DNA from: Candidatus Gottesmanbacteria bacterium
GTDB taxonomy: Bacteria; Patescibacteriota; Microgenomatia; 2-02-FULL-39-11
NCBI GenBank assembly: GCA_016186795.1
Contig: JACPKY010000002.1
Location: 465,044-529,043, forward strand
DNA length: 64,000 bases
Direction: 5' to 3'
Made by a program: the position numbers and the translations under genes. Positions 36,404 to 51,495 of this stretch are shown here, in pieces; positions within the stretch are counted from its first letter, which is position 1; each line of letters opens with the position of its first letter. The notes beneath the pieces were generated by a model that was not told the DNA's origin, did no database searches, and worked only from the letters and a program-made list of their open reading frames with translations.

Positions 36404-38290
36404 TTAACAAACACCCGTGTTTGTATTACCTTGAGAGGGGACGCCACATGTCTTCCAGGATCCACCATCTGGTTCTCTCCCAATTGCTGTATCTTCTCCT
36501 GGATCAGAAAGGTATTGATGTTGATCGATTAGTGTCCCATCTCCTGCAAATAGAACGACAAAATCTCCACCATCATTAAGAAAACCTGTACCGAGAAGTT
36601 GAAAAGGGTAGAGAGGATTTGAAGTATTAAGAGATGTTAGTGGAATTTTATCACTACTCCCTGCATCGCTATCAAAATTGGTATCATCATCAATATAAAA
36701 TGAAGAAAGATCGATGCTACCCGGATTGTAAAACTCGACCCATTCCTGCGGAAATGTTGACCCAACATGGGCAACAAATTCATTGATAAGAACCTGAGAA
36801 CCTGTTGGAGACGGCGTGGGAGTCTCTGATGGGGTAGGAGTTGGGGTATCAATTGGAGTTGGAGTTTGGGTAGGGGTAGTTAATGGTGTTACCCCGGCAT
36901 CAACTGCTATTTCTCCATCGGAACGAACTGTATTGTAAATTTTTACTTCGTCGATAAAGCCGTTGAAGTTACGACCATCTCCTTTTTTTCCGATAACAAC
37001 TGGTTGTCCGGAAGAACTTGGTATTAATTGAGCTTCGGTATGCTGTAATAACCCATTTATATAAATTTTTGTTTGAGCTCCATCATTTGTAAATGCAATA
37101 TGGTACCAATTGCCTATCGTTAAAGGTAGAGATGTTGCGCATACTTGAGTATTTGCAAACATAAATACACTTCCGCTTGTGCCACATCGGCTCCCATCAT
37201 CTACCCCAAACGCCCATGAACTTCCAATGTTACTTTTTGCAATTGGATACCGAAAATCATCAAGTGAGTTTGGTTTTATCCATAATGCAACAGTTAAAGG
37301 AGCACTATCGGGCAGACTTGTAGAATCCAAAACATTTATAAAATCATCATTACCATCATTAATTATTGCTCCATTCACTTGGCCACTTCCTGTCCAACCT
37401 GATGAAACTGTTGGTGGATCACCATAGAAATTTAGTGCTCCATTATTACCATTCCCCGAGGAATCATTTGCTGTCGTTCCGGTTCCTTCATCCAAATTTA
37501 AATATAGGACCAATGGCCCTATTGGACCTGTTGTGGGACTTGGTGTTGGAATCGGGGTCTCTGTTGGAGTTGGAGTATCTGTGGGAGTAGGCGTTTCGGT
37601 AGGAGTAACTGTTGGAGTTTCGGTTGGTGTGGGAGTATCTGTTGGAGTCGGTGTTAATGTTTCTGTTGGTGTAAGAGTTGGGGTTGGAGTATCTGTCGGA
37701 ATCTCTGGAGGTGTCGGAGTGATGGTCTCGGTTGGAGTTGGAGTCTCTGTTGGGGTTTCTGTTGGAGTCAATGTCGGTGTCGGTGTTTCGGTGTGAAGAG
37801 GGGTAGAACTTGGTGTTGGCGTCACGGTCTCTGTTGGTGTTGGTGTTTCGGAAGGAGTAGGTGTTGGCGTATCACTCGGAGTGGGAGATGGAGTTTCTGT
37901 CGGTGTCGGCGTTTCTGTCGGAGTTGCCGTTGGTGTTTCGGTTGGTGTGGGAGTAATTGTTTCAGTTGGAGTGGGAGTTTCAGTTGCGGTAGGGGTTGGC
38001 GTTTCTGTTAAAGTGGGGGTTGGCGTTTCGGTGGACGTCGCAGTTGGAGTAATAGTAGGTGTTGGAGTTACTGTAGGCGTAGAGCCACCGAGCGGCTGCA
38101 ATGGGGCAAGTGTCGGAAGTGGTACAAGTGTAGGAAGAGGATTAAGTCGGGGAAATGGCAAAAGTCTTGATAAATTCGGTAGAGGAAGAAATGGAAACTG
38201 AAAAGCGTATGTTGTCGTTGGGGTAACAAAAAGTGTTGCTAATCCTAAAAAGCAACCTATAAGAAAAAGGCGAATATTGAATAATTTCAT
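36404..38290 (-). CDS. Secreted surface protein: signal peptide, long Thr-Pro-Glu repeat linker, LamG-like (concanavalin-A-like lectin) domain, second TP linker, lamin-tail domain (LTD)
   Basis: Signal peptide [22 protein letters not shown], then about 250 aa of TPTPTETP repeats. The LamG_3-like core is [22 protein letters not shown]...LWIKPNSL...[25 protein letters not shown]...[12 protein letters not shown]. The C-terminal LTD is [37 protein letters not shown]. The ORF track extends to 38392 (MHICTCLPP...), but that extension contains a complete intrinsic terminator hairpin. Confidence 0.7.
37500..38110 (-). repeat. Coding tandem repeat array (ACN-CCN-ACN-GAR units) encoding the TPTPTETP linker
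   Basis: Visible nucleotide periodicity (ggagt-/gttgg-/gtcgg-type units). Gives rise to spurious GVGV ORFs on the opposite strand (37533..37796, 37881..38201). Confidence 0.6.
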
Positions 38291-38305
38291 CTTTGTATTC
38301 CGAAA

Positions 38306-38331
38306 TAAAAAATCCACCGGTGACGGTGGAC
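38306..38331 (-). terminator. Intrinsic terminator (CCACCG-TCAC-CGGTGG + U6) inside the leader / N-terminal extension of the LamG-LTD gene
   Basis: Minus-sense GGTCCACCGTCACCGGTGGATTTTTTATTTCGG: a perfect 6-bp GC-rich stem with a tetraloop followed by a U-tract. Confidence 0.5.
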
Positions 38332-38394
38332 CTGCATCAATGGTAATTAAAAGATTCTTCGATAACGGAGGTAGGCAAGTGCATATATGCATTC

Positions 38395-38421
38395 ATTGAC
38401 CTCCGTGTGCGGTTGGTCAAT
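38395..38421 (-). promoter_or_regulatory. Conserved leader RNA stem-loop, copy A (lower stem ATTGACC/GGTCAAT, loop AACCGCACACGGA) embedding an SD-like GGAGG
   Basis: Minus-sense ATTGACCAACCGCACACGGAGGTCAAT. ACGGAGGT can alternatively pair with ACCTCCGT (38365-38372). Confidence 0.45.
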
Positions 38422-38437
38422 ACTTTAGATTAATTTC

Positions 38438-38465
38438 ATTCTACTTGGGGACTATCATCTGTCAA
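38438..38465 (-). promoter_or_regulatory. Sigma70-like promoter TTGACA-16-TAGAAT for the LamG-LTD leader
   Basis: Minus-sense CTAGTTGACAGATGATAGTCCCCAAGTAGAATG, located between the sortase stop and the leader motif. Confidence 0.35.
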
Positions 38466-38531: not shown

Positions 38532-39194
38532 TCAGACCTTTCCGGCAGTAATAATCAGACGTTTTTTGTCTGCAAATCCAGAACATGTATAGAGGGTTAG
38601 AATTGATTCTTTGGTTGGAGCGATAACCTCAACTTGTGTGGGGAGCACTTCTTTAATATCCTTCACGAAATATCCATACCAGGAATCTTTCGTAAATACG
38701 TAAATCTTTTGCCCGATTTTTGCCTGTTTAAGAGGAAGGAATAATCCGGCACGAGCGTGAGCAAAAATGACTTGATTACCTATATCTTGCGGATAGGAAG
38801 AACCAAGTCCAAATCCAGCACTATCGGCAAATACCTCCCAGTATCCTTTTATAACTTTTGCTTCTCGAACTTGTACATCAATACTTAAATCGGGAATAAC
38901 AAGACGCGTCGGTGGACTTTTTGTAACTTTTTTCGAGGTATCAACGCGGAGTAAATTTTCATCTATTTTTACTGGCTCTTGTGCAAATGTGGTAACACTT
39001 TCTGCGCTTTCTGTTTTTTCTTCTTTTCGCTCATTATTTCCACCAGCTGGAGTTGAAAGTACCGATCCTACAATCAGCAAAAAAAACCCTCCGACTAAAA
39101 GGATCAGTCGCGTGCGACGCCTTTCGTCTTGAAGGATTTTTTTTACGCTCTTTGGATTTTTCCGAATTTTGATTTTGCGTAGAGAAGAAGACAT
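38532..39194 (-). CDS. Sortase (transpeptidase) with N-terminal membrane anchor
   Basis: N-terminal TM (LILLVGGFFLLIVGSVL), His motif VIFAHARAG, catalytic Cys in LTLYTCSGF (TLxTC), and a downstream Arg. Confidence 0.8.
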   Translation of the reverse strand: MSSSLRKIKIRKNPKSVKKILQDERRRTRLILLVGGFFLLIVGSVLSTPAGGNNERKEEKTESAESVTTFAQEPVKIDENLLRVDTSKKVTKSPPTRLVIPDLSIDVQVREAKVIKGYWEVFADSAGFGLGSSYPQDIGNQVIFAHARAGLFLPLKQAKIGQKIYVFTKDSWYGYFVKDIKEVLPTQVEVIAPTKESILTLYTCSGFADKKRLIITAGKV

Positions 39195-39637
39195 AACACT
39201 CCTGATAGGAGTATTATATCAGAAAGCCCCAAATCGAAACTTCCGGTTGCGGATAAACCTTTAACAATTGGTTGTGGCTCTCCTGGTTGTCCACCTGATT
39301 CACCCCCAATTCGAGGTGTCCATCCACAATATGGTCCTACGTATGATTTCCCGGCAGCACACGCATCTTCACCATCTCCTTCCCCTCCTCCACCATTTGA
39401 TGGCGGATTTGTTGGCGTCGGTCCCCCTATCCGCGGTGTTGGTGTTGGCTGGGTAGTTGTGGGCTGTGGCGTACTTGTTGGTTCTTCTGGTGGAGATGTC
39501 GGATGTTCGTCACTTGGTTGTGTTGGTCTTGTAGTTGGCCTCTCCCACCAGTCTGCATATACGCTTGTTGAGTTTGACATCACAATCCACAAAAGAATGA
39601 TTAATAAGCTTCCGAAAACAGCAATTTTTCTTTTCAC
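39143..39637 (-). CDS. Small secreted Pro/Thr-rich protein with C-terminal hydrophobic anchor and basic tail (candidate sortase substrate)
   Basis: GTG start with SD AGGAGGTGA 9 nt upstream. Signal peptide; PTTRPTQPSDEHPTSPPEEPTSTPQPTTTQPTPTP; C-terminus KGLSATGSFDLGLSDIILLSGVLCLLLYAKSKFGKIQRA. Confidence 0.5.
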   Translation of the reverse strand: MKRKIAVFGSLLIILLWIVMSNSTSVYADWWERPTTRPTQPSDEHPTSPPEEPTSTPQPTTTQPTPTPRIGGPTPTNPPSNGGGGEGDGEDACAAGKSYVGPYCGWTPRIGGESGGQPGEPQPIVKGLSATGSFDLGLSDIILLSGVLCLLLYAKSKFGKIQRA

Positions 39638-42068: not shown

Positions 42069-43265
42069 TTACAGGGAGAGTGTATTCAGGACATCGTTAA
42101 GATGTGTCTGAACCGCTTCCATGAGTGATGCCCATCCTGCCATCACGCTACCACCACCGGTATTGTAGTCTCCGGCGTTATTCCCAGCATCAACAACACT
42201 ATTTACAGTATTGAAGACTCCGAGATACTCAGGTTCACACCCATCGGTCTCACTCCATGGTCTCCATGGATTTCGAATCCGATCAGCGTTGTGAGACTGG
42301 CACTTGTTATTCCAGTTATCTACAGTTACGTTTTTATTGTTATTCACGTACTGTGCATTATTGGAATACGGACCTGTTACACTACTTGAAGCATCATTGG
42401 CGAATCCGCCCATGGCTGTTGCAATCATAGTCGTGTTGATATTCCCTTCGGTATTGACACCAACTCCGGCTGTTGCATTTCCTGTTGTAATATCGCCTCC
42501 CAACGTGTTGTAGGATGCGCTATTATTCCCAGTTAATGCACGTGCGTTCACTCTGTTTTTGACTTGGAGGTCATTCACATTGTTCACGTACGCGTAGATG
42601 TCGTTGTTGATGACTGCCGCATTGTTAGAGAATGGTCCAGTTGTGCTATTGAATGCAGTGTTGTTCCCAGTACCACCTGCCCCAAGGTTAAGGTCTGTCA
42701 AACTGTCATTCACATGTGTCAGTACTCCAAGATTTAACCATGAATTTCCAGTTTGAACGGTTGCTGGACCGGTATTGTAGTCTGCACTATTATTCCCAGT
42801 ATCAGCTGTTGCATTCACACTATTCTTCACTGTGGCGGTATTACTGTTGTATACATCGACTCTCGTTCGATTGTTGATGTATGCAGCGTTATTGGAGTAA
42901 GGTCCGGTAATTTCGTTACCAGCGATGTTGTTTGAACCTCCAGATCCAATTGTCAGATTGGTCGTACTGATGTTTGCAACTGAAGACACGGTTGTGTTGT
43001 TGGTCGCATTCCCAGTGACGATTGAGCCTCCCAGCGTATTGTAGGAAGCACTGTTGTTCCCAGTGTTAGACGTAGAATTCACTCTATTGATGATTTGAGC
43101 ATCATTGACGTTATTGACCGTCACATTGCTAGTGTTGTTTACAGTGCAGGTGTTGTTTGAAAACGGTCCTGTGGTACTGTTTGTACAACTGTTTGCAGCA
43201 AATGCCGGTACTAAGGTTGCAGCGAGTAAAACTGCTGCCCCTGTTAACGTTGCAATTTTTTTCAT
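42069..43265 (-). CDS. Secreted Asn/Thr-rich protein with four tandem ~90-aa repeats (paralog family)
   Basis: SD AAAGGAGGTG 9 nt before ATG. Signal peptide MKKIATLTGAAVLLAATLVPAFA. Four modules share TGP[FY]SNN...[VI]NN...VN...TGNNSA[SD]YNT.GG.I.TGNAT. Confidence 0.7.
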   Translation of the reverse strand: MKKIATLTGAAVLLAATLVPAFAANSCTNSTTGPFSNNTCTVNNTSNVTVNNVNDAQIINRVNSTSNTGNNSASYNTLGGSIVTGNATNNTTVSSVANISTTNLTIGSGGSNNIAGNEITGPYSNNAAYINNRTRVDVYNSNTATVKNSVNATADTGNNSADYNTGPATVQTGNSWLNLGVLTHVNDSLTDLNLGAGGTGNNTAFNSTTGPFSNNAAVINNDIYAYVNNVNDLQVKNRVNARALTGNNSASYNTLGGDITTGNATAGVGVNTEGNINTTMIATAMGGFANDASSSVTGPYSNNAQYVNNNKNVTVDNWNNKCQSHNADRIRNPWRPWSETDGCEPEYLGVFNTVNSVVDAGNNAGDYNTGGGSVMAGWASLMEAVQTHLNDVLNTLSL

Positions 43266-43365
43266 TAAGTTTTCACCTCCTTTCTTTTGTGTGATAACAA
43301 AACTGTCATTCTGCCTAGGAAAGAACACACAGCTTTGTCCAATCCAGTAAGTCAGTAATCACTCC

Positions 43366-43416
43366 AAAAAAATGAGGTAAGTCTCCTCCCGATAATATCG
43401 GGAGAATCCTTACCTC
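43366..43416 (-). terminator. Intrinsic terminator in the 5' leader of the repeat-protein operon (GAGGTAAG...CTTACCTC stem with nested TCCCGATATTATCGGGA hairpin, + U7)
   Basis: Minus-sense GGAGGTAAGGATTCTCCCGATATTATCGGGAGGAGACTTACCTCATTTTTTT. Shares GGTAA with the upstream motif stem, so the two structures are mutually exclusive. Confidence 0.55.
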
Positions 43417-43432
43417 CGTGTGCGGTCGGTAA
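43410..43432 (-). promoter_or_regulatory. Conserved leader RNA stem-loop, copy B (stem TTACC/GGTAA, loop GACCGCACACGGA); candidate antiterminator
   Basis: Minus-sense TTACCGACCGCACACGGAGGTAA. The loop sequence is conserved with copies A and C, while the lower stem differs but remains complementary. Confidence 0.5.
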
Positions 43433-43455
43433 TTAAAATTATTTTTCCAGCGCGC

Positions 43456-43620
43456 CTAAATTTGGTGGCTGGTTTTTCTGATATTTCTCTCTGTAATCTG
43501 TGTCACTTTGTTGTTTTGCACGTAAATCTCTACGGATCCCCAGCCGCGAATATTTTTGAGTGCTTGCTTTATTTCCTCAAGTAAATCCCTAGTAATTTTT
43601 TTGGTTGAGTAGTCAACCAT
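43456..43620 (-). CDS. Small protein, DUF2292/YezD family (54 aa), embedded in the 5' leader upstream of the conserved motif; absent from the ORF track (<60 aa)
   Basis: Translation MVDYSTKKITRDLLEEIKQALKNIRGWGSVEIYVQNNKVTQITERNIRKTSHQI*. The core GSVEIyVQNgKVTQIt.R matches the YezD-like family as I recall it. Confidence 0.5.
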   Translation of the reverse strand: MVDYSTKKITRDLLEEIKQALKNIRGWGSVEIYVQNNKVTQITERNIRKTSHQI

Positions 43621-43701
43621 TGGGCATTGTAGGCAGTTGCGGGCAGACTGTGAATGATGAGCAGATTTTGGGGCAGAAGTACGGGCTTTTTTCTAAGTCG
43701 C

Positions 43702-43731
43702 ACTATAAAAGATATACTCTTACCTTGTCAA
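43702..43731 (-). promoter_or_regulatory. Promoter TTGACAAGG-N15-TATAGT driving the leader of the repeat-protein operon
   Basis: Minus-sense CTCTTGACAAGGTAAGAGTATATCTTTTATAGTG; near-identical architecture to the promoter at 49891..49920. Confidence 0.4.
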
Positions 43732-44342
43732 GAGGGCAATTTTATTGGTATTTCCTCTTTCTTCCCGTCAAGTTCTCCAACATAGAGCTTAAATTCCTTC
43801 GCATCTTGGGGGATTACAAATCCGATTCGATCAGGTTTCGTCGAGATTGCGGCAACATACACCAGATTGTTATGCAAATCTGGCGCAAACTTGTTCTCTT
43901 CATCACCGTTAACAGTCAGGCGAACGAGATCTCCTGGCAAAATATTTAATGGAATTGTGGCATCGTTTTTCAGGTCAAGTTGCAGAATTAGAAAGGTTTT
44001 GTTGTTTTTGGCAACGAACGTCTGGTCTTTCACAAGGACTTGATTTGTTTTCTCAACTGTTGTTGCGGTAACTTTTATTTTCTGTATCACTGGTTTTCCC
44101 TGGTTATTGAGAGCGGTAAACTCAAAGCTTCTATTCACCGGTTGCGAAACAGATTTAGCCGATGCCGTCTGACCAACCCTTGAAGAAATAAATCGTGCAC
44201 CTCCGATACCAATGACAAAAAGAACTATAAGCGCAATAACTATCCGTTTTTTGGAGGATAAAATGGATCGTAGAAAAAGTCCACCGGTTTTCGCAAGTTG
44301 CGAAGCTTTTTCTAGACCCAGAATATTTTTTTCTTTTGCCAT
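43728..44342 (-). CDS. Membrane-anchored protein with beta-rich extracytoplasmic domain (DUF4352-like)
   Basis: N-terminal TM (IVIALIVLFVIGIGGA) followed by ...TFLILQLDLKNDATIPLNILPGDLVRLTVNGDEENKF...; resembles DUF4352 proteins. Confidence 0.45.
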   Translation of the reverse strand: MAKEKNILGLEKASQLAKTGGLFLRSILSSKKRIVIALIVLFVIGIGGARFISSRVGQTASAKSVSQPVNRSFEFTALNNQGKPVIQKIKVTATTVEKTNQVLVKDQTFVAKNNKTFLILQLDLKNDATIPLNILPGDLVRLTVNGDEENKFAPDLHNNLVYVAAISTKPDRIGFVIPQDAKEFKLYVGELDGKKEEIPIKLPS

Positions 44343-44343
44343 A

Positions 44344-44372
44344 AGAAAAGCCCAAAGCAGACAGCTTTGGGC
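44344..44372 (-). terminator. Hairpin GCCCAAAGC-TGTCTG-CTTTGGGC + UUUUCUU (terminator / 5'UTR structure) directly upstream of the 43728..44342 start
   Basis: Minus-sense GCCCAAAGCTGTCTGCTTTGGGCTTTTCTTATG, preceded by a TTGACA-15-TATAGT promoter-like sequence (44387..44413). Confidence 0.4.
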
Positions 44373-44481
44373 AGAAGTAAACAGATACTATACTGGTCAA
44401 ATCACATTGTCAAGATATCGAAATATATCAAACTATCTCTTTTCCAGTACATTGATCAATTTTTCTTATTACCACGTACTG

Positions 44482-45663
44482 TCATGCGATGAATAATCCC
44501 ACTACAAACAAGGCAAAGTAGAGAGAAAAGAAGAGAACTGATGCTCCCAGATACATGATTTTATAGGTAGGCTGAATGCGAAACGAGACGACAGAAAGAA
44601 ATAGCGGAAAAAGAATAAGTGCATACCGAGAGAAAGAGAAAAATGGAACCATACTGTATTTCGTACTAGTAACGGTAAAGACGAGATAGAGAAGGAGAGA
44701 AAGAATCCAGATATCAGTCCGGAGAAGCCTTTTTGACAGGACAACAAGAATTCCTCCTGATGTTGCCAAAAACAAATTCACATGATTTGGAAGAGTATAC
44801 CCGAGAGAAAAAAGGTAGTTCCACTCGGCAGTAATAAGATCCCAAGGCAAGGTGTATTTTATCCCCCAAAAGTTTTGCGCTTTAATGGAAGAAAAGGGGA
44901 CACCAGTCATCGAATCTTGGAAAAAGGTAGAAAAGATATATGCTAGTGGAATAAGAAAAAGAGAAATAAACCGTGGGAGAAAATTTCGAAGGTTTACTGA
45001 GCTCTTATAGTACGTATACAAAAGAGGAAGAAAAACAACGATCGCAAATGGCTTTGTTGAAGCGGCCAAAGCTGCAACGAACGATGCCCAAAAATACTTC
45101 TTCTTCCTCAACAAAAGAAACAATCCAATCAGAAGAACTAAGAGAAGCGACTCCGCATAGGGCGCAAGAAGGAAAAAACTTGTGGGAAAAAACGCATACA
45201 TCGTAACGAGCGGAAGAGATGTTCTTTCTCCTTTCTCTTCTTTAGCAAATAGATAAAGAAGGAAAAATACCAAAAAGACTAGAAACGTATTTAAAACAAA
45301 AGCTCCTTGCTCAAAAGTAAATCCAGTAAGAAGAAACACCCGTAGGACAAGTGGATACAAAGGGAAAAATGCTGCGCTTTGCGGACTGTCTTGATATAGA
45401 AAAATTGCTATATTTTTATACCAGAGAGCATCAAAACGCATGAGAGGTTGCATAATAATATACAAAGGGGATGATTTTTCTGGAATACGCTCTACAAAGT
45501 CCATACCACTTACAAAATACGGAATAGGACTAACAAGTGAAAGTAGTATCCAGCCGATTAAAAAGGTCGATAATCTGAGCCAAACGGTAAAGAGAATTGC
45601 CGTCACAAAAGCCCGTTTTGTCACCGGTGAAATTTTCATGAGGCAAACTATACACCGAAACAA
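44482..45663 (-). CDS. GT-C membrane mannosyltransferase, PIG-V/Mannosyl_trans2-like
   Basis: Motif RFDALWYKNIA in an extracytoplasmic loop (D..WY..IA signature); about 10 TM segments. Confidence 0.5.
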   Translation of the reverse strand: MFRCIVCLMKISPVTKRAFVTAILFTVWLRLSTFLIGWILLSLVSPIPYFVSGMDFVERIPEKSSPLYIIMQPLMRFDALWYKNIAIFLYQDSPQSAAFFPLYPLVLRVFLLTGFTFEQGAFVLNTFLVFLVFFLLYLFAKEEKGERTSLPLVTMYAFFPTSFFLLAPYAESLLLVLLIGLFLLLRKKKYFWASFVAALAASTKPFAIVVFLPLLYTYYKSSVNLRNFLPRFISLFLIPLAYIFSTFFQDSMTGVPFSSIKAQNFWGIKYTLPWDLITAEWNYLFSLGYTLPNHVNLFLATSGGILVVLSKRLLRTDIWILSLLLYLVFTVTSTKYSMVPFFSFSRYALILFPLFLSVVSFRIQPTYKIMYLGASVLFFSLYFALFVVGLFIA

Positions 45664-45727
45664 GAAATAGAGTCAAGGAGGAACATCTTGTTGATTCCCT
45701 ACCTCTACGCTATCATCCACTCATACT

Positions 45728-47365
45728 ATGAAGAAATGGACTATTCTCGTTTCTATTCTTATCATATCGGCTCTATTGCTTTTCAGTACTGTTGCCAATC
45801 TTTCCTATCCCCTTTTATGGAACGATGAAGCGCTTGGAATCATGCTAACGAAGTCTACACTTCATGGTGGCTATCCGCGCGTTTATTTTCAAGGTAACAT
45901 TCTCAATCAATTCCATAGAGATCTCCTGAAACCACTCGTAGATCAAGAAACTGGTGCCTCAAAAGAAAATGGTTGGCTGGCGTATTACATTGGAGCACCG
46001 TTTGTAGCGCTTTCTGAAAGAATCGATAATATATATCTTCAAACAGGAATAGTTAGGCTCCCATTTGCTATCATTGGTTTTGCAAGCATATTTATTTTTG
46101 GAGCTATTGCCCGACTTTTTTTCTCACAAGGGGGCCAAAAACGGAATAGTTTTTTCCTCGTTCTTTTTCTCTCTCTTATTGATATACCACTCCTTCTCCA
46201 TATCCGGGAAGCCAGATATTACTCAGTTCTCCTTTTTATTGTCGGATTCTACTGGTATGTGCTTCTAAGGTACGTACTCTTCAATACTATTTCCTACCGT
46301 TTATTCCTTTTTCTCATGCCGGTTGTTTGTCTTGCCATTTTCCTAACCTATCCCCCGGCAGTGTTCCCATCTCTAGGCATACTTTTTATTGCATCTGGTA
46401 TTTTCCAGAGACGCATCCGTAAACCGACACTCAAGTCTCTCTTGCCATTCATGGCAGCAATAGTTGTAACATCTCCGGCTTTTTTGTTTTTTGACATCTT
46501 CCACCTTGCCGAATTGACTGCCAAAATATACCATGTCACACCGCTTATGGTTTACAAAAATATTGTCACTATCACTTCACGAATTTATGCCGATACTCTC
46601 CTTATGTTTGTCGGTTTAGGGATTGGGGTTGCTATTCTTTTGGTTAAGACGAATAGAGCAAGTACTTCTCTTCGGTTTTTCCTCCTCTTCTCATTTCTGG
46701 TTGCTATATTTGGTGTCGGAACTCTCGCAACACTTTCCCGGATACCTTTCGTTTTCACCAGATATTATATTTATCTGTATCCACTTGTCACAATCAGTGC
46801 AGTTATCGCTATAATAACGATCAGAGAACTTCCTTTGCCGAAAAAATCTCTCATCTGGAAAAAAAGTACCCTTTTTTTCCTTCTTTGCATCATGGTCTTT
46901 AACCTCACTATCCATAACGGAGGAGAGAAAGCCCGTCGCATTGCAGGTTACATCTTTCAACTTACCCATCGCTATGAAGGTCCACTGGACGTTATTATTC
47001 CCTATATCCTCGCCCACTTTTCAACGCCACAAAAACTTATTATCGCCACAAACTACGAAGAGTTCTCTTACATGTACTACCTTCGCAGCCGAGTGACAGT
47101 AGGATTCATGGGAATCAATTTGGAGGAAGATCTGAAGACAACTGCGGATATTATCGTATACCGGCCAGGATGGGGGACAGACCCAAATATTTTTCGATAT
47201 TTCCTCTCAAAAGATACTTACGATGAGGTGACGTTCCCGATTTTCAACTACCCACTAAACAATATTCCTGAGTTTTATTTTGGCTATCCGCACCAATTCC
47301 GAACGCTTTATGCGAAAAAAGAGGAAGAAAAGGTAAGAATTTTTGTCCGCAGGGGGAGTATTTAA
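45728..47365 (+). CDS. Polytopic membrane protein, probable GT-C glycosyltransferase
   Basis: 545 aa with 12+ TM segments, an early acidic loop (LLWNDEALGIMLTKSTLHGGYPRVYF), and a C-terminal soluble domain. Confidence 0.45.
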   Translation: MKKWTILVSILIISALLLFSTVANLSYPLLWNDEALGIMLTKSTLHGGYPRVYFQGNILNQFHRDLLKPLVDQETGASKENGWLAYYIGAPFVALSERIDNIYLQTGIVRLPFAIIGFASIFIFGAIARLFFSQGGQKRNSFFLVLFLSLIDIPLLLHIREARYYSVLLFIVGFYWYVLLRYVLFNTISYRLFLFLMPVVCLAIFLTYPPAVFPSLGILFIASGIFQRRIRKPTLKSLLPFMAAIVVTSPAFLFFDIFHLAELTAKIYHVTPLMVYKNIVTITSRIYADTLLMFVGLGIGVAILLVKTNRASTSLRFFLLFSFLVAIFGVGTLATLSRIPFVFTRYYIYLYPLVTISAVIAIITIRELPLPKKSLIWKKSTLFFLLCIMVFNLTIHNGGEKARRIAGYIFQLTHRYEGPLDVIIPYILAHFSTPQKLIIATNYEEFSYMYYLRSRVTVGFMGINLEEDLKTTADIIVYRPGWGTDPNIFRYFLSKDTYDEVTFPIFNYPLNNIPEFYFGYPHQFRTLYAKKEEEKVRIFVRRGSI

Positions 47366-47368
47366 TAT

Positions 47369-48922
47369 TTAATTTACGATATTTCGAACGTCATAAAGAA
47401 GAATCCCGCTATTGGATGCTACAGTCGGAAAGTATGAGAAGGGATTTTCCAATGGAAGGCGCTCCAATTTGCGAGTACTCATTTCTTCCAAACCATAATA
47501 GACAAAGTCGATAGTGTTATTCCTTATAAATTCCAGCTGTCTCTCTTTATCCATTTTCGAGTAAAATGCCTTCGCAAGGGTTTCCTTCTCTAAACTATTC
47601 GGCGTTTGGAATTTGTGCCCGAAATAGACTCGATTATTGGAGTGGGCAGGAATATAGTTCCCTATCCGATATAAAGAAAGTATCGAACTACCTTGAGGTA
47701 ACCTCTCTATCTTTGACAACATATCACCTTCACTTTCACTTAGGAAGAAAAACGAGTTGTTTTTCTCTATTTTTATCAATTTCTGAAATACATAGAAACG
47801 AGGTAAGAGTGAGAAAAGGGTAACAAAGGTTACGGCAATAAGAAGATATCTCCGATTAGGAATTAGATCGGGAAACATAAGAAAGGCAAGTGTCACAGCC
47901 CATATGAAAACCCCTTTCATGAAATACAAATGGAATCCGAATGGGGAAAGTGCGAAAAAAAGTTGACTCAGGAAAAAAATTTTTACAAGACTCATTTTGA
48001 GACTATTTTTTCCAAAAACAAGCCCAATAAATAAAGGAATGGACAATAAACCAAATCCAGAAACAAGCGATAACGAATCAACGTTAAAAAGCTTCTGATT
48101 TATAAGACCAGAAAATCCTGGATTATCTAAAAGAGCTGAAAGAGCAGAAAGATAGTAGATTCCAAAGAAAAGTACTATAGCAATTGGATACAAAACCGTT
48201 ATTTTTATCTTTTTGATTACATATATCCAAAGACTCACAATAAGTCCTATGAGAAGATAAACAACTGCAAAAGGAGGGTGAAGCAGTATACTTATGCAGC
48301 TGAAAACCCCCGCCCAATACAGGCTGGAACGGCTAAATGTTTGAAAAAACTTATGTAAGAATACAAATGTTAAAAGAAGACATACAGTACTTAATGCATC
48401 ATGTCCTCGTTCTAAAGCATTAACCAGTGTAAATCCGGCAATCTTTAGATCTGCTGAAAAACTAAGTAATGATAAGAAACCAAATCCTCCCCCAAGAACC
48501 ATAACAACAAAAGCAGAAAGACGGATAATCTGGTCGGAAAATAGTTCCTTTGCCACCATATAGCATGCAACGATAAGCACAATCCCAGTAACAATCGAAG
48601 CAATATGGAACAGAATAAATGGATCAAGATTGAATAATCTGTTTATGACACCAAGAAATGTGTAGTATTGATAAATATAAACTGGTCCATGAGGAATTGT
48701 TGCATAGGTATTAACCAATCCCATTCCATAAAGTTGGCCGTACCGCATATATGACACTTGGAAATTGGTATCCCACGCGTCGAACCATGAAGTTTGTTTT
48801 GGATACCAATATCCTTCCGGAGTATTGAACCAGTGGTAGAGGGTTGGAAATTTAGCAAAGAAAATGGCAAGGAAGATCACTCCTGCCACAAACATTGCTT
48901 CTCGTGTAAAAAGGCGCTTCAT
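47369..48922 (-). CDS. Polytopic membrane protein, probable GT-C glycosyltransferase
   Basis: 517 aa with multiple TM segments and a C-terminal soluble domain. Convergent with the previous gene across only a 3-nt gap. Confidence 0.45.
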   Translation of the reverse strand: MKRLFTREAMFVAGVIFLAIFFAKFPTLYHWFNTPEGYWYPKQTSWFDAWDTNFQVSYMRYGQLYGMGLVNTYATIPHGPVYIYQYYTFLGVINRLFNLDPFILFHIASIVTGIVLIVACYMVAKELFSDQIIRLSAFVVMVLGGGFGFLSLLSFSADLKIAGFTLVNALERGHDALSTVCLLLTFVFLHKFFQTFSRSSLYWAGVFSCISILLHPPFAVVYLLIGLIVSLWIYVIKKIKITVLYPIAIVLFFGIYYLSALSALLDNPGFSGLINQKLFNVDSLSLVSGFGLLSIPLFIGLVFGKNSLKMSLVKIFFLSQLFFALSPFGFHLYFMKGVFIWAVTLAFLMFPDLIPNRRYLLIAVTFVTLFSLLPRFYVFQKLIKIEKNNSFFFLSESEGDMLSKIERLPQGSSILSLYRIGNYIPAHSNNRVYFGHKFQTPNSLEKETLAKAFYSKMDKERQLEFIRNNTIDFVYYGLEEMSTRKLERLPLENPFSYFPTVASNSGILLYDVRNIVN

Positions 48923-49044
48923 TATCTTTTGTCCTGGCCGGATTCTATATCAAGCGCCTTGGTGTTTGCAATACGTTCCCCCAAATACCATTGAACTCCC
49001 CTTCTAGAAAGGAGAGTTCGAAATGGCAGAAAATACTTCGTGGT

Positions 49045-49635
49045 TTACAGTCTAACTTTGAGCCACAGAGTATTCAGTTTGGTCGTGATAAGTGTCGTGA
49101 TACTTGCATCCCCACCGGCTGCTGTTCCATTGCCGGTATTATTGTTGGCAGTATTTCCTCCGGTATTGACGATTGAAGAGAACGTATTTGTTACATTACC
49201 GCTATTGGTTAGAGTAAACGTAAAGTTTTTGGTTGCATTGATATCAGCATTGACCGTTGAGTTTTGTCCGGTCATGTTGACAGTTATATTGTCACAATCG
49301 CATGTTGCATTATCATCACTAAGATCGACATCTACGTTGGATGTATTCATTTCCACTTCTTGTGTCTGATTTTGTGTGCTATTGCCGGCAATTGCTGTAC
49401 CATCTTTGGTGTTGTTATCCGCAGAATTATTTCCGGTTGTTGCATTGTACGTCACATTTTGCGTGAGCGTGTTGGCATTCGTTACTGTCAATAGATGATT
49501 CTTAATACGATCAATTCGTGCATTGACAACAGATTGCTGACCGGTGTTACTGATACTTATTCCTGCAAATGCCGGTACGGTACTTGCAAGGATCATCCCG
49601 ATACCCACTGCACCAGTTAAAAGTTTCTTTATCAT
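49045..49635 (-). CDS. Secreted Asn/Thr-rich repeat protein (short member of the paralog family)
   Basis: SD GGAGGTGAAAA + ATG. Signal peptide MIKKLLTGAVGIGMILASTVPAFA is conserved with the 42069 gene (…LTGA…VPAFA). Modules include NATTGNNSADNNTKDGTAIAGNST and NTGGNTANNNTGNGTAAGGDAS. Confidence 0.65.
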   Translation of the reverse strand: MIKKLLTGAVGIGMILASTVPAFAGISISNTGQQSVVNARIDRIKNHLLTVTNANTLTQNVTYNATTGNNSADNNTKDGTAIAGNSTQNQTQEVEMNTSNVDVDLSDDNATCDCDNITVNMTGQNSTVNADINATKNFTFTLTNSGNVTNTFSSIVNTGGNTANNNTGNGTAAGGDASITTLITTKLNTLWLKVRL

Positions 49636-49697
49636 TTTTTCACCTCCTTTCCCTTCGGCTACCCTCAGGGCAAGCCGGGCAGAGTATTTTGCTGCAT

Positions 49698-49735
49698 AAA
49701 AAACACTCTCTCCCGACTTAGTCGGGATTGAGTGT
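49698..49735 (-). terminator. Second terminator-like hairpin in leader C (CACTC-A-ATCCCGAC-TAA-GTCGGGA-GAGAGTG + U6) containing the TCCCGAY-N3-RTCGGGA palindrome
   Basis: Minus-sense ACACTCAATCCCGACTAAGTCGGGAGAGAGTGTTTTTTATG. Confidence 0.4.
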
Positions 49736-49831
49736 GGTTTGAGAGATGGGCAGACTACAATACATATTAGGCAGTAATCAAATTAAGATGAAAAATGATA
49801 CACCGGGCAGGTGTACATATTTTCCTTCGAT

Positions 49832-49860
49832 AAAAAAAGCAATCCTATCCTTTGGATTGC
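49832..49860 (-). terminator. Intrinsic terminator (GCAATCC-AAAGGATA-GGATTGC + U7) in leader C
   Basis: Minus-sense GGAGGCAATCCAAAGGATAGGATTGCTTTTTTTATCG. Shares GCAA with the 3' strand of the motif stem. Confidence 0.55.
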
Positions 49861-49880
49861 CTCCGTTTGCGGTGAGCAAA
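49861..49880 (-). promoter_or_regulatory. Conserved leader RNA stem-loop, copy C (stem TTGCTC/GAG(G)CAA, loop ACCGCAAACG)
   Basis: Minus-sense TTTGCTCACCGCAAACGGAGGCAA. The apical CCG-CAAA-CGG corresponds to CCG-CACA-CGG in copies A and B. Confidence 0.5.
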
Positions 49881-49890
49881 CTCTATATCC

Positions 49891-49920
49891 ACTGTAAAAC
49901 ATTTTTCGAACCCTTGTCAA
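49891..49920 (-). promoter_or_regulatory. Promoter TTGACAAGG-N15-TACAGT for leader C (divergent from the 49954 gene)
   Basis: Minus-sense TTGACAAGGGTTCGAAAAATGTTTTACAGTGG. Confidence 0.4.
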
Positions 49921-49953
49921 GTACCTATCTGTAACGATAGTATTTGTCTTGGT

Positions 49954-51495
49954 ATGATATACTCGTATCCGTTTCCAAAGAAATATATCGATATGAAAGC
50001 ATTCGTTTCTCTCGGTAAACTCTTTCTATTCCAATTTTTCCCATATGTGGTAGTTTTTACCGCATCGCTTTATTTCCCAAATGATTCTGACCTTGGCTGG
50101 CATCTTGCATACGGCGAATACTTCTTCCAAATAGGAACAATACTAAAAGAAAATATTTTCTCAACCACGATGGTTGGCTTTCCGTGGGTAAATAGTTCAT
50201 GGGGGACAGATCTAGTTACCTATTCTATTTTTTCTCAATTTGGATTCGTGGGTCTTTCTGTTGCAGCAGCACTTGTTATTACACTTATTTTCTTTTTCCT
50301 CTCACGGGCTTTCCGTCTCACTTTTTGGGAACGAGCCCTCCTTTTCCCAATCATGCTTTTTATGGAAATGCCCATGTTTGAAGTATCGTTTCGCGGTCAT
50401 CTCCTAACACTTCTTTTTGTTGCAATCCTCTATTTTCTCCTACGTCGATATGAGGAAGGAAAGTGGAAATTCCTCCTTCTTATCCCAGCTCTTTTTACTC
50501 TCTGGGCAAATATCCACGGTGCGTTTATCCTCGGACTTGGACTGGTCGGTATTTGGCACGGATTATATGTCGTCCGCACGTTTCTCAACACGGACAAAAA
50601 GGATCGGGTACGAAAAACACTCTCAGCAATCCGAACTGGTTTTCTCCTTCTTAGTGCCTCAATTGCGGGAACACTTATCCATCCGTTTGGAATAAAAATC
50701 TATGAAGAATCACTCAAACACTTCGGCAATCCCCTGCAAAGGTTTATTATCGAATGGCTCCCGTTTGATAGATTCTCACTTCTGTGGTGGACGCTTATCG
50801 CCTGGGAACTTCTCATATTCGTGAGTTTCGCAGTTATTATCAAAGAGAAAAAATTTACAAAACTCCTTCCGTGGATTGGAGCACCAGTCCTTCTTCTCAT
50901 TCTTTCTTTTTTCGTTCGGCGCTATACCTGGCCGCTTATCCTTATCTCACTCCCCCTTATCCGGCAAACAGCACGTATCATCAAACCAACGCTTGATGAT
51001 GTGTCTACTTCTATTGCAGTTTTTATCTTTGTTAGCCTCTACGGATACTATCTATTTTTTAACCCCTCGAAAGCTTTTCTTGCCCAACCCACTTGGAATA
51101 TGTACTGTGAATTCATAAAGTGCTCACCACAATCGGCAGAGTTTCTTCGCTCCCAAATCCTTCGGCAAAGCTCAGGACAAGCAGACTACTCCGGAAAGCT
51201 TATGACATTTTATAACTGGGGCGGGTGGATTATATGGAACTACTTTCCTGATATACAACCCTCAATTGATGGCAGAATGCATCTTTGGCAAGATGAAAAG
51301 GGCTATAGCGCATTTATCGAGTACTACCCGTATGAACAAAACTGGAAGGATATCGATGAGTCTTCCTACGATATTGTGTATATGACGACCGCAAAACCAG
51401 TACACAGGAGGCTTATGGAGCTGGTTTCTGAAAATAAATGGAGTGCTCCCTATTCTGATCCCTACGCCACAGTTTTTGTACGAAACAAGAAATAG
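49954..51495 (+). CDS. Polytopic membrane protein, probable GT-C glycosyltransferase
   Basis: 513 aa with 12+ TM segments, an early loop DLGWHLAYGEYFF, and a C-terminal soluble domain. Confidence 0.45.
   Translation: MIYSYPFPKKYIDMKAFVSLGKLFLFQFFPYVVVFTASLYFPNDSDLGWHLAYGEYFFQIGTILKENIFSTTMVGFPWVNSSWGTDLVTYSIFSQFGFVGLSVAAALVITLIFFFLSRAFRLTFWERALLFPIMLFMEMPMFEVSFRGHLLTLLFVAILYFLLRRYEEGKWKFLLLIPALFTLWANIHGAFILGLGLVGIWHGLYVVRTFLNTDKKDRVRKTLSAIRTGFLLLSASIAGTLIHPFGIKIYEESLKHFGNPLQRFIIEWLPFDRFSLLWWTLIAWELLIFVSFAVIIKEKKFTKLLPWIGAPVLLLILSFFVRRYTWPLILISLPLIRQTARIIKPTLDDVSTSIAVFIFVSLYGYYLFFNPSKAFLAQPTWNMYCEFIKCSPQSAEFLRSQILRQSSGQADYSGKLMTFYNWGGWIIWNYFPDIQPSIDGRMHLWQDEKGYSAFIEYYPYEQNWKDIDESSYDIVYMTTAKPVHRRLMELVSENKWSAPYSDPYATVFVRNKK

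Follow-up and report, generated by a model that had tools for sequence, protein, structure and literature searches.

The stretch of DNA considered here, 64,000 nucleotides (nt) of a Candidatus Gottesmanbacteria bacterium contig (JACPKY010000002.1, positions 465,044 to 529,043; referred to below as the window), encodes on its minus strand a secreted protein with LamG and lamin-tail domains (LTD). The segment that precedes this gene (38300-38465, minus strand) probably comprises its promoter and an untranslated 5′ leader carrying a factor-dependent antiterminator/terminator switch. The leader contains a 27-nt hairpin, designated M, which recurs in two further leaders of the window and in related contigs, and which is best read, at least in most of its copies, as an antiterminator/terminator switch positioned ahead of Microgenomates surface-protein genes.

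A recurrent hairpin in surface-protein leaders

The core sequence CCGCAMACGGAGG occurs three times in the window, in each case on the minus strand and within a 5′ leader, at positions 38412 (copy A, ahead of the LamG gene), 43425 (copy B) and 49872 (copy C), the latter two preceding genes for secreted N-rich repeat proteins of 398 and 196 amino acids (aa), respectively. From loci encoding homologues of the 196-aa protein, together with loci fetched via LamG orthologues and DUF2292 homologues, 26 distinct instances were assembled from Gottesmanbacteria and Microgenomates contigs, and these can be aligned without gaps. All are located on the sense strand upstream of genes for secreted proteins, in leaders of three classes (A, B, and C). 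In 11 distinct contigs that encode 196-aa-protein homologues, the gene is preceded by M at a distance of 100-250 nt, typically in the form agcUGACCGCAAACGGAGGCuu...GGCCUCCGUUUU.

The structure modelled for M,.(((((((..(((....))).)))))))., consists of an outer stem (P1) and an inner stem. Across the two stems of the 26 instances, 84% of cells are paired, 8/10 base pairs exhibit changes on both sides, and pairs 6-24 and 7-23 are never broken; the covariation score was reached by none of 500 shuffles, and controls with slid partners were 27-45% paired. P1 is variable in sequence and covaries, and the core is nearly invariant (RA-CCG-CNNA-CGG-A), the (nearly) invariant positions of M being A10, C11, C12, G13, C14, A17, C18, G19, G20, A21, and G23. 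This core is made up of a 3-bp G-C stem, flanking unpaired A residues and a four-base loop starting with C, of which the variants CACA, CAAA, CCAA, CCCA, CACC, and CUCA were found.

A covariance model (R3) built from related loci only, with no window sequence, picks out exactly three sites in the 64 kb, each of them on the minus strand: copy A at 38394-38422 (35.4 bits, E = 1.5e-9), copy B at 43407-43435 (33.1 bits, E = 1.1e-8), and copy C at 49854-49882 (38.3 bits, E = 1.5e-10). The next best candidate has an E value of 0.13, and no copies beyond the three were found in the window using models R2 and R3 with filters off. Comparison of the whole window with Rfam 15 at gathering scores gave no matches, and a search with the three leaders at E ≤ 10 returned only chance-level, terminator-driven hits, none of which covers M; examples are those to DUF3800-I (20 bits, threshold 44.2) and Phe_leader (18.3 bits, threshold 55). 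No paper on an attenuator motif in Microgenomates or Patescibacteria was found. Hairpin M represents an RNA motif family that is without a match in Rfam 15 and was not found in the literature.

Some other candidates were considered and set aside. The exact 16-mer core GACCGCAAACGGAGGC has 11 hits in IMG/VR, none of which possesses a P1 stem or a terminator and several of which lie in ordinary Shine-Dalgarno (SD) contexts; they were rejected as chance matches and serve as a negative control. The possibility that M is a DNA operator palindrome bound by a transcription factor was rejected on the grounds that the arms vary with compensation, that the non-palindromic centre is invariant, and that all copies are found on the sense strand. 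Likenesses of M to the K-turn, T-box, preQ1-I, and guanidine-II motifs were rejected on their defining features.

Predicted terminator and antiterminator structures of the leaders

Leader A is preceded, as the original prediction had proposed, by a promoter of the form TTGACA-16-TAGAAT. Its −35 hexamer (38460-38465, minus strand) and −10 hexamer (38438-38443, minus strand), identified by a consensus scan, agree with the consensus at 11/12 positions and represent the top promoter-like site between 36000 and 40000. Both hexamers and the 16-nt spacer are also present in the orthologous loci L027 and L036, and transcription would be expected to start at about 38431, some 10 nt 5′ of M. The hairpin ATTGACC-AACCGCACACGGA-GGTCAAT, also part of that prediction, is indeed found in copy A (38395-38421, minus strand), where P1 comprises 7 bp between the arms ATTGACC (38421-38415), located approximately 16 nt past the −10 hexamer, and GGTCAAT (38401-38395). 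The interior contains an internal loop of AA opposite A, the inner stem CCG/CGG, and the loop CACA, and the predicted energy is −12 kcal/mol for a 38-nt segment and −11.2 kcal/mol for a 29-nt one. Because no U tract lies behind it, the first hairpin pair of copy A is not itself a terminator.

Mutually exclusive with M is the alternative hairpin T1′ (38365-38406, minus strand), formed by pairing of ACGGAGGT (38406-38399) with ACCTCCGT (38372-38365), two complementary segments 26 nt apart whose pairing had been proposed beforehand. In the minimum free energy and centroid structures predicted by RNAfold, leader A adopts this conformation, as a ACGGAGGU/ACCUCCGU pairing plus the downstream terminator, with T1′ amounting to −15.2 kcal/mol. 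The corresponding arms in L027 are ACAGAAGT/ACTTCTGT, and two positions that differ from the window are compensated on both sides: the change of G19 to A is matched by C12 to U in M and by C to U in the 3′ arm of T1′, and that of G22 to A is matched by C8 to U in P1 and by C to U in T1′. The same bases are therefore kept paired with two alternative partners, and, because the L027 changes are compensated in both, the ACGGAGGT/ACCTCCGT pairing is functional and under selection. This double compensation represents the strongest evidence for a switch.

T1′ of copy A is followed by the tail UAUCGAAG rather than by a U tract, and falls outside the definition of an intrinsic terminator; its L027 equivalent also lacks a U tract. 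The equivalents in L028 and L037 are true terminators, followed by seven and five U, respectively. Copy A probably represents a derived form in which T1′ is still under selection and its U tract has been lost.

Between T1′ and the gene is T2 (38300-38333, minus strand), AGGTCCACCG-TCA-CCGGTGGATTT followed by a U-rich tail, which was listed first by the terminator scan and conforms to the definition of an intrinsic (Rho-independent) terminator. A terminator had been predicted at this point with the stem CCACCG/CGGTGG; the terminator is there, with a stem that extends beyond those bases (38333-38310; 10 pairs, 5 of them G-C, with a loop of 4) and a tail of six U, A, and three U. The position and sequence of T2 are kept in L027, L028, and L037, and in 4/4 leaders (the window and these three loci) a second strong terminator is positioned 15-30 nt ahead of an SD-less start codon. 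Since T2 is strong and conserved, and its stem lies 19 nt before the ATG at 38290, expression of LamG would also require passage of T2. The syntenic sortase-to-LamG loci L027, L028, and L037 also contain the promoter, the hairpin, the alternative pairing, and the terminator, which upholds the earlier view of this region as a regulatory leader.

A more compact arrangement is found in leader B, where copy B of M (43407-43435, minus strand; TTACC-GACCGCACACGGA-GGTAA) is located about 22 nt past the DUF2292 stop codon and overlaps terminator T1 (43366-43416, minus strand; GAGGTAAG...CTTACCTC followed by A and seven U). The 5′ arm of T1 is the 3′ half of M, and T1 is predicted at −29.3 kcal/mol versus −8.0 kcal/mol for M. 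Copy C (49854-49882, minus strand; TTGCT-CACCGCAAACGGA-GGCAA) has, like copy A, a promoter directly upstream (49920-49891) and lies near the inferred 5′ end of the resulting transcript. In B as well as in C, GGAGG and the 3′ half of the hairpin together provide the 5′ arm for an intrinsic terminator with a tract of seven U, and both T1 hairpins conform to the definition of such terminators. Leader C contains three terminators (49697-49864, minus strand), namely T1 (49864-49835), which overlaps M, T2 (49816-49798; CACCTGCCCGGTG, invariant in 6 loci), and T3 (49735-49703), which is followed by six U.

Over the family as a whole, 22/26 instances have a first downstream hairpin that starts in columns 15-21 of the motif and has a U-rich tail behind it, and in these it is predicted at −13 to −46 kcal/mol versus −5 to −15.5 kcal/mol for M. 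The strand common to both helices consists of M columns 15-29, an organization that corresponds to the generic terminator/antiterminator attenuator. M and the competing hairpin are mutually exclusive in these predictions, and the terminator is the predicted ground state. It is proposed that the 3′ half of M (...CGG-A-GG plus the 3′ strand of the stem) pairs instead with the complementary downstream segment and that, because the competing terminator is thermodynamically far stronger than M, the default would be premature termination, with read-through needing M to be held closed. A trans-acting RNA-binding factor that recognizes the invariant core could hold M in this state, for which the best candidate would be a basic 54-aa DUF2292 protein encoded immediately upstream of leader B.

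Such a scheme is reminiscent of the RAT elements recognized by the CAT-PRD proteins BglG, SacY, LicT, and GlcT, which are leader hairpins of ∼29 nt with internal loops, whose 3′ part overlaps the 5′ arm of a stronger terminator and for which termination is the default and the bound state permits read-through; in the bgl operon the regulator gene is also located upstream of the regulated terminator. M differs in its single 2x1 internal loop, 3-bp G-C stem, and four-base loop, and its targets are genes for surface proteins, not for sugar utilization. No match of M to the RAT consensus was seen when the two were compared by eye, and no CAT-PRD protein or phosphotransferase system was seen among the window's translated open reading frames (ORFs), which were inspected without a domain scan.

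A number of observations weigh against a switch of this kind. T1′ of copy A lacks a U tract, such that M/T1′ cannot terminate alone, and no pairing to T2 was found. L036 retains only M, 13 nt ahead of its ATG, with no terminator, and L029 has no M at all, so that termination control is not the only possible role of M. The stacked terminators of the C-type (three) and A-type (two) leaders are not explained by a simple one-hairpin antiterminator. The candidate DUF2292 protein has no identified known RNA-binding domain and no relative in the PDB. Finally, the start sites and termination at T1 and T2 are predicted from sequence. With respect to the second hairpin, possible RNA pairings coupling M/T1′ to T2 in copy A were sought by eye, and only matches of 4-6 bp, rich in wobble pairs and not kept in L027, were noted; a link of this type was dropped.

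The number of terminators is characteristic of the leader class, with three in all six C-type leaders, two in the A-type leaders (window, L027, L028, and L037), and one in B-type leaders. A passive one-hairpin antiterminator explains the B-type leaders fully and the A- and C-type leaders in part, for which reason processive antitermination has been kept as the main rival, unlikely as it is judged to be. M would then be a loading hairpin of the nut, put, EAR, or LoaP type, and a factor bound to it (possibly the DUF2292 protein) would ride with the polymerase past all terminators of the leader, the overlap between M and T1 only gating loading. Consistent with this are the multiple strong terminators of the leaders concerned, the position of M close to where A- and C-type transcripts are inferred to begin, and the selection on the M/T1′ alternation in copy A and L027 although T1′ cannot terminate. 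The lambda N-nut (boxB), HK022 put, EAR (eps), and LoaP systems likewise feature a small promoter-proximal leader hairpin, cell-envelope or secondary-metabolite operons, and several downstream terminators. In those systems, however, the element does not overlap the terminator that is suppressed, and the process depends on NusG-family proteins, N proteins, or large RNA structures, of which none was found here. Overlap as tight as that of M and T1 is typical of passive antiterminators rather than of the processive systems known, and B-type leaders contain only one terminator. Neither a NusG paralogue nor an N-like protein was noticed among the ORF translations of the 64 kb, which were only read through, no domain scan having been run.

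The factor proposed to hold M closed is a protein rather than a metabolite. An alternative in which M acts as the aptamer of a very small riboswitch for a metabolite or ion, with T1 as its expression platform, appears improbable. P1 is aptamer-like in that its 3′ strand is common to the terminator, the core is invariant across divergent genomes, and riboswitches as small as preQ1-I and guanidine-II exist. Against these points, conservation in unpaired sequence is limited to three positions (R9, A10, and A21), the four bases of the loop are variable, M is not accompanied by a second hairpin, and no conserved tail suited to pseudoknot or dimer formation was noticed. In addition, the regulated genes encode surface proteins and not enzymes or transporters, and no Rfam riboswitch model matches. 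c-di-GMP riboswitches also act as transcription attenuators in surface-protein leaders (sortase-dependent adhesin and pilin genes of Firmicutes), but M is far smaller, has too few conserved unpaired bases, and gives no match to Rfam GEMM-I or GEMM-II. The T-box antiterminator resembles M as a small helix with a conserved bulge that competes with a terminator, and superficially in the sequence ACCGC, but M lacks both the 7-nt UGGN bulge and a specifier domain, and gives no hit to the T-box in Rfam. ANTAR leaders contain two tandem hexaloop hairpins (with A1 and G4), the second of which overlaps the terminator, whereas M consists of one hairpin, the four-base loop of which starts with C, and so does not belong to this class.

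Still more doubtful is a function of M as a 5′-terminal stability or translation element, whereby closed M would protect the 5′ end of the mRNA or expose the start region and T1′ would open M, T2 being either a partial terminator that acts constitutively or a structure that belongs to SD-less initiation (hairpin, U-rich tract, AUG). The arrangement in L036, where M alone lies 13 nt before the ATG and approximately at the inferred 5′ end, would be in keeping with such a role, as would the fact that M begins no more than ∼10 nt from the inferred start of transcription in A- and C-type leaders and the presence of a second SD-less gene with a terminator-like hairpin and U tract 7 nt before its ATG (44372-44350). 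However, 22 of the 26 instances overlap a bona fide terminator, and B-type copies either are separated by at least 25-35 nt from any 5′ end that can be inferred or come straight after an ORF.

The strength of the leader-A promoter (11/12) and of the terminator ∼125 nt later, together with the lack of an SD before the LamG start, could also suggest that the promoter-to-T2 unit is a free-standing small RNA of ∼125 nt, for instance a decoy that titrates the M-binding factor, with LamG expressed by read-through. This has very little probability: the LamG gene has no other promoter, the M module runs into strong SDs in leaders B and C, and L036 lacks any terminator. An antiterminator/terminator switch remains the preferred interpretation for the family.

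Further structural detail was noted in two groups of leaders. Leader C forms part of a conserved element of ∼290 nt (window 49697-49925, minus strand; L001, L003, L004, L030, and L033) that holds, besides the hairpin, a series of three terminators, the middle one being CACCUGCCCGGUG, unchanged in six loci, as well as the block GAUUACUGCC...GUCUGCCC, which is likewise invariant; this is far more than a simple attenuator needs. In one clade (L014 2905-2960, L016, L020 2890-2920, and L022 1190-1220), the T1 U tract CCGUUUUCG is at the same time the 5′ arm of a further hairpin with the downstream sequence CGAAAACGG, adding a third alternative structure that overlaps the terminator.

The LamG start codon and the question of a leader peptide

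The LamG gene was called as an ORF of 662 aa beginning at the ATG at 38392-38390, with an SD-like GGAGGT 6 nt ahead, and thus includes a 34-codon in-frame extension (38291-38392, minus strand; MHICTCL...RNTK) relative to the ATG at 38290. The LamG/LTD orthologues P0021, P0022, P0023, P0025, P0026, P0027, and P0066 all begin with a signal peptide that aligns with window Met35 (MKLFNIRLF...), a start that is not preceded by an SD. Because all orthologues start at this point, the extension is an artefact of the ORF caller that represents leader RNA and not protein, with ATG 38290 as the true start, and the original prediction was in this respect borne out. ORF callers have in fact over-extended two genes of the window into their leaders, by 34 codons for the LamG gene and by 21 codons for the leader-B gene, and both starts need correcting.

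It had further been proposed that a ribosome at GGAGGT-6-ATG translates a 34-residue leader peptide, and that this translation governs either formation of the terminator or sequestration of the SD. In the window the GGAGGT is indeed ideally spaced from ATG 38392, and the frame is open through Met35; an open frame of 34 codons would arise by chance in such AT-rich sequence in about 1/5 of cases by our own estimate, (61/64)^34. Neither GGAGG, ATG, spacing, frame, nor peptide is kept in L027, L028, L036, and L037. The counterparts of GGAGGT are AGAAGT in L027, GGAGAT in L036, and GGAAG in C-type copies other than that of the window, and a start codon 6 nt past GGAGG is found only in the window, there being none in L027 and the nearest ATG lying 16 and 14 nt away in L028 and L037, respectively. 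The MHICTCL... peptide has no counterpart elsewhere, and in L028 and L037 the conserved CCUCCG falls in a different reading frame. In copies of the B and C types, GGAGG is not followed by a start codon, and GGAGG is base-paired in both alternative structures. The conserved SD, ATG, and leader peptide that define ribosome-mediated attenuators are thus lacking in L027, L028, L036, L037, and the B- and C-type copies, and GGAGG is a by-product of structure, composed of the inner-stem CGG, the unpaired A, and the GG of P1. Given this lack of conservation of GGAGG, ATG, and peptide, control by a leader peptide or by ribosomes is unlikely for the family, and the specific scheme with the 34-residue peptide highly so. 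Of the earlier idea of SD sequestration, the position of GGAGGT 6 nt before an ATG in the window stands, and its role as a Shine-Dalgarno sequence is not reflected in conservation; the short leader peptide finds no support.

Short ORFs with similar peptides (M-I-L-S-A-S-V-F and M-K-L-S-A-S-V-F) are found at L028 1297-1340 and L037 1080-1125, and are absent from the window and L027. Their likeness stems from conserved nucleotides of the terminator 3′ arm and is not that of a conserved peptide.

The DUF2292 gene and the surroundings of the leaders

The gene regarded as the best candidate for a trans-acting factor encodes a 54-aa DUF2292/YezD protein (43456-43620, minus strand; PF10055, 32 bits with a cut-off of 22, E = 9.2e-8) and ends ∼22 nt ahead of copy B. 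Its candidacy is based on its location upstream of M and the terminator in every DUF2292 locus examined. In 14/14 distinct loci with a DUF2292 gene, M follows this gene in the same orientation, at a distance from the stop codon of less than 80 nt in 11 and of 172, 364, and ∼1600 nt in the others. Model R1, which was built before loci L030-L035 were fetched (via the DUF2292 protein alone), located M downstream of the DUF2292 gene in 6/6 of these. In all loci examined, the upstream neighbour of the gene is a DUF4352-like single-pass membrane protein. An identical 54-aa protein, named 'DUF2292 domain-containing protein', is present in a 'Candidatus Gottesmanbacteria bacterium' record, and 119 other relatives among the matches listed are 74-89% identical; in more distant loci, DUF2292 is still 54-62% identical, whereas the adjacent surface proteins there are only ∼28-37% identical to the window protein. 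The protein is basic, with a net charge of ∼+4 calculated from its sequence, and a profile built in the present analysis detects 337 representative proteins at 50% clustering, all of 44-110 aa. Its AlphaFold model is weak and a fold search was uninformative, and DUF2292/YezD was encountered in the literature only in gene lists, no functional paper being found.

The order DUF2292, M/T1, repeat protein mirrors, by analogy, that of hutP, bglG, and pyrR. In the hut and pyr systems of Bacillus, too, the gene for a small RNA-binding regulator comes first and is followed by an intercistronic terminator/antiterminator and then the regulated genes. The mechanistic details differ, in that HutP is a hexamer that binds UAG repeats with histidine and PyrR stabilizes an anti-antiterminator; DUF2292 has no detectable similarity to either protein, and its binding of RNA is hypothetical. 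If a trans-acting factor operates on M, the DUF2292 protein would most plausibly be that factor. A broader, tentative possibility, less probable than the switch itself, is that DUF2292/YezD proteins (∼55 aa) constitute a new family of RNA-binding antiterminators that bind the M core and switch on a Microgenomates regulon of secreted surface proteins (N-rich repeat and sortase-linked LamG/LTD), perhaps processively through the stacked A- and C-type terminators, the DUF4352-like neighbour perhaps being a signal-sensing partner.

Bacteria of the candidate phyla radiation, to which this organism belongs, are uncultured and probably epibiotic, and their surface proteins likely mediate attachment to the host. 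A 27-nt RNA element that is easy to synthesize and a 54-aa protein would, as proposed, provide a compact and testable circuit for at least three surface-protein transcription units per genome. If correct, this would be a regulatory circuit for the candidate-phyla-radiation cell surface based on a motif whose description was not found in the literature for this group, and, if the link to DUF2292 is true, it would give a role to a Pfam domain of unknown function.

A promoter-like sequence, TTCACA-17-TACAAT (43626-43654, minus strand), ends 5 nt ahead of the ATG of the DUF2292 gene and a further promoter is located upstream at 43731-43702, suggesting that the gene has a leaderless transcript besides the one from 43731-43702. 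The conserved upstream neighbour is represented in the window by a gene for a 204-aa single-pass membrane protein (43728-44342, minus strand) with a weak match to DUF4352 (E = 0.0069, below the Pfam cut-off). It has no SD, and a terminator-like hairpin, GCCCAAAGCTGTCTGCTTTGGGC followed by TTTTCTT (44350-44372, minus strand), lies 7 nt ahead of its ATG and just downstream of a promoter at 44413-44385, the same layout as that of T2 before the LamG gene.

The genes controlled by the leaders encode predicted surface or secreted proteins. The LamG gene (36404-38290, minus strand) specifies a secreted protein with TP repeats in addition to the LamG (PF13385, E = 5.7e-27) and lamin-tail (E = 8.5e-6) domains. 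Immediately upstream of leader A is a sortase gene (38532-39194, minus strand; PF04203, E = 3.4e-19), and the sortase-to-LamG gene order is conserved in related loci. Upstream of the sortase gene are genes for proteins of 164 and 769 aa and for the 398-aa secreted N-rich repeat protein. The 164-aa protein (39143-39637, minus strand), the gene for which overlaps the start of the sortase gene, carries at its C terminus a sortase sorting signal, with LSATG followed by a hydrophobic stretch and a basic tail, and is likely to be a sortase substrate. The 398-aa protein of leader B (42069-43265, minus strand) has no Pfam match; its start at 43265 follows the strong SD AAGGAGGTGA, and the over-extended ORF call (43266-43328, minus strand) begins from a GTG (MFFPRQNDSFVITQKKGGENL). 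The paralogous 196-aa secreted N-rich repeat protein of leader C (49045-49635, minus strand) has 18 homologues with 55-65% identity, their sources being Gottesmanbacteria and Microgenomates.

Outside the leaders described, the window contains few strict terminator-like sites. Much of the remaining sequence (1-30000 and 44482-51495) consists of a very large cell-envelope glycosylation cluster, almost all of it on the minus strand, that contains at least eight large multi-pass membrane proteins judged by eye to be ArnT/PMT-like, several GT2 glycosyltransferases, and nucleotide-sugar enzymes.

The hexamer CUGCCC is concentrated near the leaders, with 6/11 minus-strand copies of the 64-kb window falling within ∼500 nt. 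Copies were noted at 43621-43700, 44343-44400, and 49680-49815 (minus strand), and at L027 2861-2867, L029 ∼1255, and L036 ∼2495. At least three are located in the SD-less 5′ untranslated region of the DUF2292 gene, one in the hairpin that precedes the DUF4352-like gene, on its 5′ arm, and one in terminator T2 of leader C, within the loop that is invariant; the hexamer also forms the loop of the L027 hairpin and occurs 2 nt ahead of the ATG in SD-less LamG orthologues. CUGCCC may therefore represent a second recognition word or a substitute for the SD.

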